A stretch of DNA of 10,701 nucleotides from a virus (Duplodnaviria; Heunggongvirae; Uroviricota; Caudoviricetes): positions 64,001 through 74,701 of the IMG/VR virus record IMGVR_UViG_3300027917_003468; one strand, written 5' to 3'. Shown here piece after piece: positions 3,525 through 7,967 of the stretch. Within the stretch, counting starts at the first letter, position 1. The number at the start of each line of letters is the position of its first letter. The translations under genes and the position numbers were made by a program. The notes beneath the pieces are model-generated. The model made no database searches, was not told the DNA's origin, and was given only the letters and a program-made list of their open reading frames with translations.

Positions 3525-4955
3525 ATGCGGAGTTTAGAGGAGACGGTAGCGATGGTACGAAAAGCACTTACATTCACCGAAGAGGAGATCACAGCTTTTC
3601 ACGAAGAGATGCTATACCCCGTAGTAAGGATACAAGCAAAAAGCGCACTTGGATCTGGTTCTATTATTTACAGTAAGCCAAAACAAGATATCCCATCAGA
3701 GTATGAAACCTATATTCTGACGAATCACCATGTAATTGATTCGGCCATTACACAGGTTGAAAAGTGGTCGAGCCTTCTCCAAAGAAAATATAAGGGAGAT
3801 GTCTTTGCTGATGTTGATGTGGAAATTTTCGAGTACCAGTATGAATCTTGGGAACCCACCCACCATACTATTCCAGGTGAGATTGTAACCTACGACCAGG
3901 ACCAGGATTTAGGATTGGTTCGCCTAAAGACGGTAAAGCCAATGAAATATGTCGCCAGGATGCTGCCAAAAGGTGAATCAAAAAATAGACTGCGTATGTT
4001 TATGACAACGCTTACAGTCGGATCCGGTCTTGGTGAAGAGCCTTTCCCCTCTATCCCAGGTATGTTAGCCAACTTGAATCGGAGAATTGCAAACACAGAT
4101 GGGAAAGGTTACACATTCCACCTGAGTAGTTCACCCTCAATTTTTGGGAATTGTTTAGTAGGAGATTCGTTGGTCTCTATGTCAGATAATACGGTCAAAC
4201 CCATAAAAGAAATAAAAGAAGGTGACTTTGTATGGTCATGTTCAAAGGGAGGTGTGAGTTCTGATAACAAAGTCGAAAGATTTATTGAGTCTGGAGAAAA
4301 AGATATATATGAAGTAAAAACTAGAACTTGTTTATTAAGAGCATCTGATAATCATCCAGTTCTAAAGTTCAGCAAGCGCCCTGCACAATATAATCATCCT
4401 CCTGTTGATATATGGTTTAAATGGGCGAAAGTAGAAGATTTAGCAGATGGAGATTTAATCGCTGTTTTTGATGGGCAGATTGGTTGCTCTGGGAAGATGC
4501 AAAAACAAGAATTAAATATTGAGGGATTTGACAACAAAAACATTCCAACTGGACTGCATCTAGAGAAGGTCGAAAAAATGAAGGTAGTGGGTAAAGAAAA
4601 AACTTATGATATTAAACTGGATCACCCCCACAACTTCTTTGCAGATGGAGTTCTAGTACATAATAGTGGTGGGGCCTGTTTCCTTACAGACACGCATGAG
4701 ATGATTGGGATCCCTTCTAGAATCGCAGTTACTGGCAGATTAGGTAGTGATGCAATTACACATATGGGCTACATTATTCCTATTGAACGTGTATATCGAT
4801 TCTTCAAAGCCGAACTATTATATTTCCTCTACGATTCAAATTACACATCTGATCAGTGTTTTGATCTACGGAAAAAGAAGCGGGAGGAAGATGAGAAACG
4901 AATGGCAATAGATATTAGTAGGAATGGTGAGGTAGATACAAGTAATAACAGTTAA
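3525..4955 (+). CDS. Trypsin-like (S1/Trypsin_2) serine protease precursor containing an intein
   Basis: GSGSII; triad His in YILTNHHVI (CAT 3729-3731); Asp in YDQDQDLGLVRL; nucleophile motif IFGN|SGG is restored after intein removal. Followed by E.IGI....A.....GY.IPIE, typical of this fold. The start may be ATG 3552 (AGGAG at 3538-3542). Confidence 0.87.
   Translation: MRSLEETVAMVRKALTFTEEEITAFHEEMLYPVVRIQAKSALGSGSIIYSKPKQDIPSEYETYILTNHHVIDSAITQVEKWSSLLQRKYKGDVFADVDVEIFEYQYESWEPTHHTIPGEIVTYDQDQDLGLVRLKTVKPMKYVARMLPKGESKNRLRMFMTTLTVGSGLGEEPFPSIPGMLANLNRRIANTDGKGYTFHLSSSPSIFGNCLVGDSLVSMSDNTVKPIKEIKEGDFVWSCSKGGVSSDNKVERFIESGEKDIYEVKTRTCLLRASDNHPVLKFSKRPAQYNHPPVDIWFKWAKVEDLADGDLIAVFDGQIGCSGKMQKQELNIEGFDNKNIPTGLHLEKVEKMKVVGKEKTYDIKLDHPHNFFADGVLVHNSGGACFLTDTHEMIGIPSRIAVTGRLGSDAITHMGYIIPIERVYRFFKAELLYFLYDSNYTSDQCFDLRKKKREEDEKRMAIDISRNGEVDTSNNS
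4152..4664 (+). mobile_element. Mini-intein (Hint domain, 171 aa, no endonuclease)
   Basis: Block A CLVGDSLVSMSDNTVKPIKEIKEGDFV starts at TGT 4152. Block B LRASDNHPVL. Blocks F/G KTYDIKLDHPHNFFADGVLVHN end at AAT 4662-4664. The +1 residue is Ser (AGT 4665-4667). No LAGLIDADG blocks. Confidence 0.93.
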
Positions 4956-5603: not shown

Positions 5604-6011
5604 ATGGGCGGTGATGGAATATTAAGTAGAGACGATCTTTTTCTTCTAATGGAAGCATATCGAAATAATATCGAACTCAGTACTACATTATTGCAACAAC
5701 AAAATCAAATAACTGAACAGCTCAAAAAAACAACAATGCAACAAGAAAAGATATGCACTTCAATAGATAAAGTAGCCAATAAGTTAGATACATGTACAGA
5801 TGAGCTACATAAGGCGCACCAGGAAATGGTAGTAGAAAAAACAAGGTGCCAAGCACAATCATCAAAAGAACATGGATCAATTATTCATCGGGTTAACCTT
5901 GTCTATGTTGGAATTGGTGCCTTACTCGTCCAATTTTTAGCATTTGTTATAGATGTATTTGCTAAACTAGAACTTATCCGTAAAATTGCCGATCATTTGG
6001 GAGTTGGATGA
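5604..6011 (+). CDS. Coiled-coil protein with C-terminal transmembrane helix, holin-like
   Basis: GGAAGGAG RBS. Gln/Leu-rich coiled coil, then hydrophobic LVYVGIGALLVQFLAFVIDVF. Directly follows the amidase. The holin call rests on position and topology only. Confidence 0.5.
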   Translation: MGGDGILSRDDLFLLMEAYRNNIELSTTLLQQQNQITEQLKKTTMQQEKICTSIDKVANKLDTCTDELHKAHQEMVVEKTRCQAQSSKEHGSIIHRVNLVYVGIGALLVQFLAFVIDVFAKLELIRKIADHLGVG

Positions 6012-6856
6012 TGCCGCCTGAGCTTACAATATTCAATAACATTCCAGAGCTTTTATTTTACAAAGCTATCGAACATAGCCCGAGTACTGTGGTAATAACA
6101 GATATAGAAGGAAATATTATCTATGTAAACCCAAAATTTTCTGAAGTAACCGGCTATCATTACAAAGAGGTTCTAGGTAAAAATCCACGCCTATTAAAAT
6201 CAGGTAAAATGCCAAAACAACAATACCAAAAAATGTGGGAAACGATCTCAAAAGGAGGTATTTGGCGAGGAGAATTTCTAAACTGTGCGAAAGATGGCTC
6301 ATACTATTGGGAAGTAGCATCTATTGCCCCTGTAAAAGAAGGCAACAAGATAACTAATTATATAAAAGTTGCAGAGGTAGTTACAGATCTTAAACAGACA
6401 ATTATCAACTTGTGGAATATCTTAGATTATTCAAATTATTTTGTAGTTGTGTTGGATAAGAGTCTTGAAATTAGGCTCTGTAACCGCATGCTGGCTAAAA
6501 CACTTGGATTCGAGAAGGAAAATGAGTTGATAGGAAGAAAGTGGTTTGAATTTATACCAGAGACTACACAAGATATTATCAAAATTGTACATAGAGAAAC
6601 AACAGATAGAGAAGGACAAATAATGGAATCTATCAGTGAAGTTATAGCTGCCAATGGAAAAGTTGTAACAGCCAAATGGTTTAATTCTTTCGTAAATAGT
6701 GAATTGGATTGGGTCTTTAGTTTGGGCGTCCCACTTAAGATAGATGCCCAAAAAAATATTGATAATGTCAGAGAATTTTACAAACAGGTACTGGCCAAAG
6801 ATAGAACCACAATCGATGCAATAAAGAAGTATATTAACAATGAGGAAACTGGATAA
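6008..6856 (+). CDS. Tandem PAS-domain protein without an output domain
   Basis: PAS1: AIEHSPSTVVITDIEGNIIYVNPKFSEVTGY...EVLGKNPRLLKSG...MWETI..G.IWRGEFLNCAKDGSYYW...IAPV. PAS2: ILDYSNYFVVVLD...IRLCN...TLGF...ELIGRKWFEFIP. Short helical C-terminus. ATGA overlap with the upstream gene. Confidence 0.9.
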   Translation: MMPPELTIFNNIPELLFYKAIEHSPSTVVITDIEGNIIYVNPKFSEVTGYHYKEVLGKNPRLLKSGKMPKQQYQKMWETISKGGIWRGEFLNCAKDGSYYWEVASIAPVKEGNKITNYIKVAEVVTDLKQTIINLWNILDYSNYFVVVLDKSLEIRLCNRMLAKTLGFEKENELIGRKWFEFIPETTQDIIKIVHRETTDREGQIMESISEVIAANGKVVTAKWFNSFVNSELDWVFSLGVPLKIDAQKNIDNVREFYKQVLAKDRTTIDAIKKYINNEETG

Positions 6857-7175
6857 AATTGAAGTTTTTACTAATGCATTACGTTATAGCGATCCATACT
6901 ATGAATGGCGAGATGATGTTATTAAAGAACAGGGAAAACGCTGCCAAATATGCGGATCAGATATAAAAGTGCATGTACATCACCTCAAGTATTTTAAATC
7001 TATAGTAAAAGAATTCCTGTCTCACTACGATCATTTAGATGCAATAAAAGATAAGGACGAACTACTGGATTGCGCTGAGTGGTATGAAGATTTTTGGGAT
7101 CCTAATAATGGTTTAGTGCTATGTAATAACTGCCATGAGTTTGAACATCCTAATATACTACTGGAGGATGAGTAG
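6840..7175 (+). CDS. HNH endonuclease
   Basis: WRDDVI...RCQICG...VHVHHLK...NNGLVLCNNCHEFEH, a complete Zn-binding HNH motif set. Confidence 0.88.
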   Translation: MRKLDKIEVFTNALRYSDPYYEWRDDVIKEQGKRCQICGSDIKVHVHHLKYFKSIVKEFLSHYDHLDAIKDKDELLDCAEWYEDFWDPNNGLVLCNNCHEFEHPNILLEDE

Positions 7176-7364
7176 GTGCCAACACTTCGTAAAGGGGAAA
7201 AACGGTCTAGTTATATCTCTCGCTGAATATCCCAATCAGTGAGGGAAGGTATTCCTCAGAAACAAGCTATAGGGCGCTGCCATGGAATGTATAAAAGTGG
7301 GCTGAAAAAACGTAGAAGGAAAACAACTAAAAAATCCAGACGTAAAAGAGCTAGACGGAGATAG
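7176..7364 (+). CDS. Small basic protein (62 aa) with in-frame TGA at codon 17; candidate selenoprotein, alternatively a pseudogene
   Basis: GGAGG RBS at 7163-7167 and GTG at 7176. Translation MPTLRKGEKRSSYISR(TGA 7224-7226)ISQSVREGIPQKQAIGRCHGMYKSGLKKRRRKTTKKSRRKRARRR, TAG 7362-7364. It fills the gap between neighbouring genes exactly. Absent from the ORF track. Confidence 0.65.
7240..7258 (+). promoter_or_regulatory. Bacterial SECIS-like hairpin downstream of the in-frame UGA
   Basis: UGAGG-(G bulge)-AA [GGUA] UU-CCUCA. The apical loop starts 21 nt after the UGA and is A-U closed with GGU, similar to the E. coli fdhF SECIS loop A[GGUC]U. Confidence 0.45.
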
Positions 7365-7366
7365 AA

Positions 7367-7492
7367 GTGCCTACGAATAAAAATTTTGTAACCAAAAATA
7401 AAGTGGCTTGTTATGTCCCTACACTATGGCCAGGAAGAAAAAAGAGGACGAAAAGGAAACGTTATTTAGTGAAAAGATCGACAAGAAGATAG
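7367..7492 (+). CDS. Small basic peptide (41 aa)
   Basis: GGAG at 7357-7360 and GTG at 7367. MPTNKNFVTKNKVACYVPTLWPGRKKRTKRKRYLVKRSTRR, TAG 7490-7492. Same MPT start and basic tail as the upstream gene. Too short to be sure. Confidence 0.45.
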   Translation: MPTNKNFVTKNKVACYVPTLWPGRKKRTKRKRYLVKRSTRR

Positions 7493-7502
7493 TAAAAATC
7501 AT

Positions 7503-7531
7503 TTGTAAACTAGAGATGATTAGAGTATAAT
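7503..7531 (+). promoter_or_regulatory. Sigma70-type promoter upstream of 7575
   Basis: TTGTAA (7503-7508), 17-nt spacer, TATAAT (7526-7531), in an intergenic gap. Confidence 0.6.
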
Positions 7532-7574
7532 TGTAACTAGTATAACATCTAACAGAAGAGGTGAAGAGCTGATC

Positions 7575-7967
7575 ATGCAGACTAAAATACCCAAAACCCA
7601 AAAGCGCTTCGTATACAACACTTCAACGGGTGAATATGAAAGTAATATTACAGGTTGTGGAGTACCTTCCGTTCCGTACATCATAAATCTAGCCAGTGTC
7701 TCTACGAGTAATTGGAACTCTTCTTGGCAAATTCCATTAGGATGTAGAGCTGTACGAATCTCCAAAAGAGGAAAAAATAACTCGTATCGAGTATCAGCAG
7801 ATGCAGCGGGGGCTACTTACATTACAGTAGGTGGTACGGAAGTTTTTGACCTTGGAGAAATGTTTGGACCAGAAGATCCAACGGTACTCTATTTTCAGTG
7901 CGTAACTGCACCGGATACGATTGAAATTATGTATTGGCTAGATGGTTCAGAATGTCATACACCTTAA
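7575..7967 (+). CDS. Hypothetical beta-rich protein, paralog A
   Basis: GAGGTG RBS. Colinear similarity to 8020-8586: TGCGVPSV, W.IP.GCRA.RI, R.SADAAGATYIT, FGPE....LYFQC, YW.DG.ECHTP. Confidence 0.8.
   Translation: MQTKIPKTQKRFVYNTSTGEYESNITGCGVPSVPYIINLASVSTSNWNSSWQIPLGCRAVRISKRGKNNSYRVSADAAGATYITVGGTEVFDLGEMFGPEDPTVLYFQCVTAPDTIEIMYWLDGSECHTP

Follow-up and report, generated by a model that had tools for sequence, protein, structure and literature searches.

Can a bacteriophage encode a selenoprotein? The question is raised by a small gene with a UGA codon in its reading frame, found on a stretch of 10,701 nucleotides from a virus of the Caudoviricetes (IMG/VR virus record IMGVR_UViG_3300027917_003468, positions 64,001 to 74,701 of that record). 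We call this whole stretch the window.

A preliminary description of the window, made from sequence alone, had read the UGA as a candidate selenocysteine (Sec) codon at a probable cysteine position, served by a downstream hairpin that resembles a bacterial SECIS element. It had named a single mutation or sequencing error (TGY to TGA) as the simple alternative. We followed up these claims computationally. The observation is confirmed, and the interpretation, overall, is supported: the 62-codon gene likely encodes a small phage selenoprotein, which would be read by SelB of the host via a hairpin of the bacterial SECIS (bSECIS) type. Selenium incorporation and the dependence on SelB are inferred.

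The gene and its product

The gene itself is as the preliminary description had claimed: it has 62 codons and a strong ribosome-binding site (GGAGGA), and it sits directly against its neighbours (Table 1). Its frame contains a single TGA. The GTG start abuts the stop codon (7173-7175) of an HNH endonuclease gene (6840-7175, Pfam HNH_2), and the next open reading frame (ORF) starts at 7367, two bases beyond the TAG stop.

Table 1. Features of the 62-codon gene, positions counted from the first letter of the window.
Feature	Position	Strand	Basis
Small gene, 62 codons, GTG start at 7176, TAG stop	7176-7364	+	translation
Ribosome-binding site GGAGGA, 7 nt 5' of the GTG start	7163-7168	+	sequence read directly
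Proposed selenocysteine codon UGA, codon 17, in the nearly invariant first-Cys column	7224-7226	+	translation, alignment
SECIS-like hairpin, over codons Arg23-Glu24-Gly25 and 26-28	7240-7258	+	folding, allele comparison, subfamily covariation
Cys35 codon TGC, partner of residue 17	7278-7280	+	Cys17/Cys35 covariation; facing helices in model
Polybasic C-terminal tail, residues 44-62, 15 of 19 Lys or Arg	7305-7361	+	translation

For the protein, AlphaFold2 predicts two helices (residues 10-23 and 28-61) with a mean pLDDT of 89.8. Residues 17 and 35 lie on facing helices of the model, at a similar distance from the turn. A contact between the two residues is inferred from this arrangement alone. 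A comparison with the PDB returned nothing by sequence and no meaningful fold match. Tails similar to the polybasic tail are found in many free-standing homologs.

The ORF that follows the gene (7367-7492, 41 codons, GTG start) is also extremely basic. It repeats the letters VPTL from the N-terminus of the 62-codon gene and has no family match.

An unnamed family with a pair of cysteines

An exhaustive phmmer search of 1.84 billion representatives recovers 144 relatives of the window protein (E <= 1e-3). A word-indexed protein search gave no match, neither for the window protein nor for the protein of another TGA allele (L127, introduced below) read with Cys. Related-locus searches with the single protein and with its HNH neighbour gave no relatives. 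Pfam, PHROGs and NCBIfam hold no model for the family. A hit to TSCPD (E = 0.036) is below threshold and was disregarded.

Family members are proteins of 50-70 amino acids, or the N-termini of longer ones, with the consensus MP.P.KGE....Y.SRC[IV]..V..EG..Q.QA.GKC.GM. In an alignment of 48 homologs drawn from the 144 hits, seven positions are at least 90% conserved (R16, C17, E24, G25, A31, C35 and M38). The TGA falls in the C17 column. The window protein matches every motif position (P2, E8, R16, E24-G25, A31, C35, M38), with the UGA replacing C17. The motif given in the preliminary description is real: there are 144 relatives, the TGA is in the column of the first Cys and the second Cys is retained.

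The two cysteines are strictly paired. About 114 homologs have Cys at both positions 17 and 35, about ten have Ala at both and one has Ser/Ala, while not a single homolog has only one Cys. The two cysteines act, and can be dispensed with, together. The roughly ten homologs in which both cysteines are replaced by alanine are P0026, P0038, P0060, P0066, P0068, P0071, P0127, P0128, P0131 and P0140.

Viral contigs with a Cys codon mostly have the domain as an N-terminal module in proteins of about 300 or 620-780 amino acids. The four long proteins that were scanned match PHROGs of head maturation proteases or the unnamed phrog_24921, and one homolog carries an S49 peptidase domain. Most of these loci have an ORF of 550-750 amino acids just upstream; the one that was scanned and has a PHROG match is a portal protein. 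Together this describes an unnamed phage head-module family that is predicted to fold as a two-cysteine helical hairpin.

The window protein shares the motif and the predicted two-helix hairpin with the Cys-containing members, and the basic tail with many of them. It differs in residue 17, which is encoded by TGC or TGT in those members, and in its location. Cys-containing members are either free-standing proteins of 50-70 amino acids or N-terminal modules of proteins resembling head maturation proteases, encoded after the portal gene. The window gene instead follows lysis and HNH genes and is not beside the portal gene.

Further TGA alleles

We searched for further alleles with a 93-nt degenerate DNA pattern for the family in which codon 17 was fixed as TGA; the pattern has no chance match in the window. 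It found L003 among viral contigs, and L124, L125, L127 and L126 (identical to L003) among metagenome contigs, but nothing among genome contigs. The same pattern with TGY at codon 17 found at least 120 matches in viral contigs. Allowing one extra codon in the TGA pattern yielded L130 among viral contigs, a variant with one extra residue. Anchoring the TGA pattern on ATG-CCN yielded L148 together with chance hits outside the family in viral contigs, and only such chance hits in genome contigs.

In total there are seven distinct TGA alleles, the window and six others. They are not seven independent observations: they form only about four lineages (the window; L003, L124, L125 and L127; L130; L148), and two sister samples account for four of the seven. 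L003, L124, L125 and L127 make up a groundwater subfamily that is about 45% identical to the window. Thus the column that holds Cys in at least 90% of homologs also holds TGA in six further alleles from at least three further lineages.

Both TGA patterns failed to find one in 185,579 species genomes, where all hits were out of frame or chance matches outside the family. When 401 genomes from the phylum to which one deltaproteobacterial MAG belongs were searched with a profile, a single match was clearly significant, and it has no internal stop. No prophage copy with a TGA was found in the genomes searched.

Two of the subfamily genes follow a portal gene (L003, L124) and a third precedes a major head protein gene (L127). 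In L003 (3-473, - strand) and L124 (4546-5199, + strand) a sulfotransferase-like gene (Pfam Sulfotransfer_3; phrog_3347) comes after the TGA-containing gene, which is unusual for a head module.

One contig shows the reverse arrangement. In L129 (3135-3227, - strand; IMGVR_UViG_3300030613_000001) the first Cys codon is TGC and the second is TGA (...AAGQ*YGMY...). It is the only contig returned when, as a control, the TGA of the pattern was placed at the second Cys, and only a weak 4-bp hairpin (CGCC/GGCG) lies 17 nt downstream. It may be a second-position Sec site or a broken copy. Its existence means that isolated TGA-for-Cys alleles can occur in this family. Therefore a single such allele is insufficient as evidence.

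According to the run labels, the window DNA comes from a marine sediment metagenome and L003 from groundwater metagenomes of several studies. Two separately sequenced and independently assembled runs of the probable source sample have identical letters across 7224-7226. These are contigs and not raw reads, the two runs do not amount to an independent sample, and the depth is about 6-9x. Two more runs (X3 and X4) contain parts of the phage without covering the gene, and no RNA run is listed for the window. Part of the L003 contig recurs in groundwater runs of several studies; this match does not extend to a confirmation of the TGA site.

Translation continues past the UGA

Within the groundwater subfamily, synonymous sites of codons 18-44 are saturated (pS 0.53-1.0), while amino-acid changes are few (pN 0.10-0.18). 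Where dN/dS can be computed for these codons it is about 0.07-0.19. Therefore translation continues past the UGA: the selection pattern shows that the sequence 3' of the UGA is translated as a continuation of the 5' part.

Two other ways to translate the downstream sequence were rejected. Reinitiation after the UGA would cut helix 1 in two, and L003 has no in-frame ATG, GTG or TTG between the UGA and Met38. Frameshifting does not apply since the same frame continues.

The hairpin is restricted to TGA alleles

The hairpin that had been claimed downstream of the UGA is present. It can be drawn in two registers: a 7-bp stem (7240-7246/7252-7258) with the loop AGGUA, or a 5-bp stem (7243-7247/7252-7256) with the loop GGUA. 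The bulged form given in the preliminary description pairs this hairpin in yet another, third register. From the UGA to the start of the loop there are 20-21 nt, and the fold has an energy of -7.6 kcal/mol. Taken alone, the hairpin stands out only modestly (z = -2.05, with 5 of 200 shuffles folding equally well).

All seven TGA alleles have a hairpin of 5-12 bp with a G-first loop 18-21 nt past the UGA. In the groundwater subfamily the stem has 5-6 bp, with the loop GGUC(N) beginning 21 nt past the UGA, at the GGU codon of Gly25. L130 has a 7-bp stem 11 nt past the UGA with the loop AGGGAAG. In L148 the hairpin has 12 bp, a bulged U and the loop GGG (-14.5 to -15.4 kcal/mol). By themselves the hairpins are weak, with energies of -6.2 to -11.5 kcal/mol and z between -0.7 and -2.6. 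Since each hairpin is unremarkable on its own, the case rests on the comparison between alleles.

In this comparison a hairpin counted if it had 5 or more contiguous pairs, if G stood in the first two positions of its 3-8 nt loop, and if that loop began 16-24 nt beyond codon 17. Such a hairpin is found in 7/7 TGA alleles and in 0/99 distinct TGY alleles (Fisher p = 4e-9). The script scored only six of the seven, missing L148 solely because its 12-bp stem holds two G-U pairs. Counted per lineage instead of per allele, the result is 4/4 TGA against 0/99 TGY. Even the closest Cys alleles (43-55% identity) have no fold at the hairpin site. The expectation that the hairpin would be confined to TGA alleles is thus met.

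The stems are also maintained by selection within the subfamily, where compensatory synonymous changes at codon third positions preserve two stem pairs. First, the Glu24 codon GAA goes with CTT or CGT at codon 26, and GAG with CTC or CGC. Second, a change from AGG to AGC at codon 23 goes with a change from TCC to TCG at codon 27.

Searched against Rfam, neither the window nor four TGA loci match a SECIS family. The minimum-free-energy fold of 7215-7290 is an alternative 11-bp stem (7216-7226/7236-7246, + strand) that includes the UGA, overlaps the 5' arm of the SECIS-like hairpin and competes with this hairpin. It is seen in the window only and not in the other alleles.

The genetic code is standard elsewhere

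The window is the minus strand of an IMG/VR virus record of 14,152 bases, whose genes come in this order: large terminase, portal, scaffold, major head gene with a group I intron, glycosyltransferase, intein-bearing protease-like gene, amidase, PAS protein, HNH, and finally the 62-codon gene. The latter lies about 7 kb from the portal gene, beyond the amidase (lysis region), PAS and HNH genes. Members of its domain family have their gene immediately downstream of the portal gene or fused to that of a head maturation protease; L003, L124, L127 and the sampled TGY loci conform to this, whereas the window gene does not. A blastn search of deposited phages with window positions 6800-7600 gave no match.

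TGA is still used as a stop codon. It ends window gene 5604-6011 and other genes on the window, L003, L124, L127 and L130, among them several long ORFs. The small subfamily genes of L003, L124 and L125 even terminate in TGA themselves. None of the roughly 19 other + strand ORFs of the window contains a TGA in frame, and no other interrupted ORF was found on the contigs with TGA alleles. Because TGA is still a stop elsewhere on the same contigs, the recoding is site-specific and not a change of the code, as the preliminary description had stated.

There is no tRNA-Sec on the 14-kb viral record, and no tRNA of any kind on the contigs with TGA alleles. A scan of these contigs for other candidates that combine a UGA with a hairpin gave out-of-frame noise only.

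Three further features of the window concern other genes. A group I intron match (413-896; Rfam RF00028, 55.4 bits against a gathering score of 50) is flanked by the scaffold gene and the ORF of the major head protein; it overlaps an HNH/DNA-binding-like ORF (442-924). In the protein encoded at 3525-4955 (476 amino acids), an intein splicing domain (Pfam Intein_splicing, E = 9.8e-11) interrupts a trypsin-like peptidase N-terminus. Directly after the Amidase_3 lysin, positions 6008-6856 encode a protein with tandem PAS domains and no output domain; its gene has an ATGA overlap with the preceding coiled-coil gene.

Comparison with known systems

The consensus for bacterial SECIS elements (bSECIS, Zhang and Gladyshev; 2026 review PMC13188914) demands an apical loop of 3-9 nt, an upper stem of 4-16 bp, a G in the first two loop positions, a distance of 16-37 nt from the UGA and a minimum free energy of at most -7.5 kcal/mol. 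The window hairpin satisfies every one of these constraints (loop GGUA or AGGUA, stem of 5 or 7 bp, 20-21 nt, -7.6 kcal/mol). L003 (-6.2 kcal/mol) and L125 (-6.3 to -7.3 kcal/mol) fall short in energy alone, by 0.2-1.3 kcal/mol.

The window gene shares several properties with bacterial selenoprotein genes that contain an intragenic SECIS: the UGA stands where homologs have Cys, the hairpin lies directly downstream within the coding sequence and has a loop that opens with G and then G or U, and the family has both Cys and Sec forms. The window gene differs in being carried by a phage, in the absence of Sec machinery on the contigs, and in encoding a tiny head-module domain without any sign of an enzyme. 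Without Sec machinery on the contigs, that of the host must be borrowed.

The claimed likeness to E. coli fdhF, the prototype of these genes, held only in part. The minimal SECIS of fdhF (PMC8659212) is an upper stem-loop of 17 nt, set 11 nt after the UGA; its U17 is bulged and its loop contains G23 and U24. The window has the GGU-type loop in common with it, but its spacer is 14-17 nt instead of 11 and there is no bulged U. Therefore we describe the window hairpin as bSECIS-like and do not class it as fdhF-type. The missing features do occur elsewhere in the family: the 11-nt spacer is present in L130, and in L148 the U at position 17 is bulged. The loop of four TGA alleles, GGUC, is also that of fdhF.

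Viral selenoproteins are known from poxviruses, as glutathione peroxidase homologs in molluscum contagiosum virus and fowlpox virus (PMC8310308). There too, the UGA of a virus gene is read as Sec by the host, and in fowlpox virus the SECIS lies inside the coding region. However, poxviruses are eukaryotic viruses that captured a cellular enzyme and use a eukaryotic-type SECIS, whereas here a bacterial virus has a phage-specific protein with a bacterial-type hairpin.

Phages with recoded stop codons (TAG or TGA, read via suppressor tRNAs) likewise have in-frame stops read as sense in late-region genes. In contrast to these phages, our contigs have one site each, always in the Cys column and with a local hairpin, TGA is still a stop, and no suppressor tRNA is present on the contigs. 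The marks of an alternative code or a stop-recoded phage (many in-frame TGAs, TGA unused as stop) are not met.

Proposed explanation and its rivals

We propose that the UGA at 7224-7226 is read as selenocysteine by the Sec machinery of the host (SelB with Sec-tRNA). The hairpin would direct the insertion, as intragenic SECIS elements do in bacteria. The product is predicted to form a hairpin of two helices that carries a polybasic tail, and Sec17 on helix 1 would face Cys35 on helix 2. The two residues would probably form a selenylsulfide bond or share a ligand site where relatives have Cys-Cys.

The data show four parts of this explanation: the UGA is in the Cys column, translation continues past it, a covarying hairpin is specific to TGA alleles, and the code is standard elsewhere. 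Inferred are the identity of the residue as Sec, the involvement of SelB, the bond between Sec17 and Cys35, any role in the capsid, and the supply of SelA, SelB, SelC and SelD by the host. The earlier proposal of a Sec/Cys redox pair on a DNA-binding peptide that depends on host SelABC is accordingly borne out for the pairing, which the Cys/Cys and Ala/Ala covariation supports. Sec identity, dependence on SelA, SelB and SelC, and the redox and DNA-binding functions remain inference.

The main rival is UGA readthrough without Sec. In that case termination would be slowed by the hairpin, and a standard residue such as Trp, Cys or Arg would come from a near-cognate tRNA or a suppressor tRNA. Some phages are known to carry suppressor tRNAs. 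In favour of this rival, translation past the UGA is shown but the inserted residue is not, the hairpins are short, and the Sec machinery of the host is untested. Nevertheless, we consider it unlikely. The site is one of two strictly paired cysteines, and Trp or Arg would break the pair. The position of the hairpin and its G-first loop fit bSECIS, and four alleles have the loop GGUC. Furthermore, each genome segment has a single UGA where suppressor recoding would place many stops in late genes, and there is no tRNA on the contigs.

Alternatively, the gene could be a pseudogene or the product of a sequencing or assembly error, that is, of one TGY to TGA change in a Cys gene. TGA is indeed one step from TGC or TGT, the metagenome assembly is of low depth (about 6-9x), and L129 has a TGA at the other Cys. 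However, seven diverged alleles keep the TGA, and purifying selection constrains the downstream frame in spite of saturated synonymous sites. The hairpin is TGA-specific and has compensatory changes, and the two runs agree. A codon that is one mutation away from TGC and TGT and is still kept over such long divergence makes an error or a pseudogene very unlikely, and with it the simple alternative of the preliminary description.

A reassignment of TGA, either throughout the genome (code 4 or 25) or for the late genes through a suppressor tRNA of the phage, is all but excluded: stop-codon-recoded phages do exist and groundwater also holds bacteria that read UGA as sense, but TGA ends 5604-6011, long ORFs in L003, L124, L127 and L130 and the small genes of L003, L124 and L125 themselves, about 19 window ORFs lack an internal TGA, and neither Gly nor Trp would suit a column of paired cysteines.

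Significance

In the literature and databases that we searched there is no report of a phage-encoded selenoprotein. Atkins et al. 2021 (PMC8310308) name molluscum contagiosum virus and fowlpox virus as the only viruses with selenoprotein genes. The 2026 review of the prokaryotic selenoproteome (PMC13188914), BSepDB and deep-Sep do not mention phages or viruses. If the gene is a selenoprotein gene, as we think likely, then the mechanism is the known bacterial one; new are the phage as its carrier and the kind of protein.

A bolder reading goes further than the selenoprotein reading. In this reading the head-module family switched between Cys and Sec in several lineages of anoxic habitats (marine sediment and groundwater), and Sec17 and Cys35 form a selenylsulfide cross-link inside the capsid that would be stable under reducing conditions where a disulfide would not be. 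Marine sediment and groundwater are habitats rich in Sec-using bacteria. We offer this reading tentatively and lean against it. If it were true, there would be a structural selenoprotein in a virus particle, and phage assembly would depend directly on the selenium metabolism of the host.

The selenoprotein reading itself, if true, has several consequences. Gene callers would systematically truncate or miss such phage genes. Selenoproteins are nearly all redox enzymes, yet here is a small domain without any sign of an enzyme, which would raise the question of the role that selenium has in a virus-particle protein. Cys, Sec and Ala/Ala versions of a single small domain occur naturally in the family, which makes it suited to comparison at the bench. 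Finally, phages would use the SelB/SECIS system of their hosts for their own late proteins, and their host range and fitness would be tied to the selenium trait of the host.
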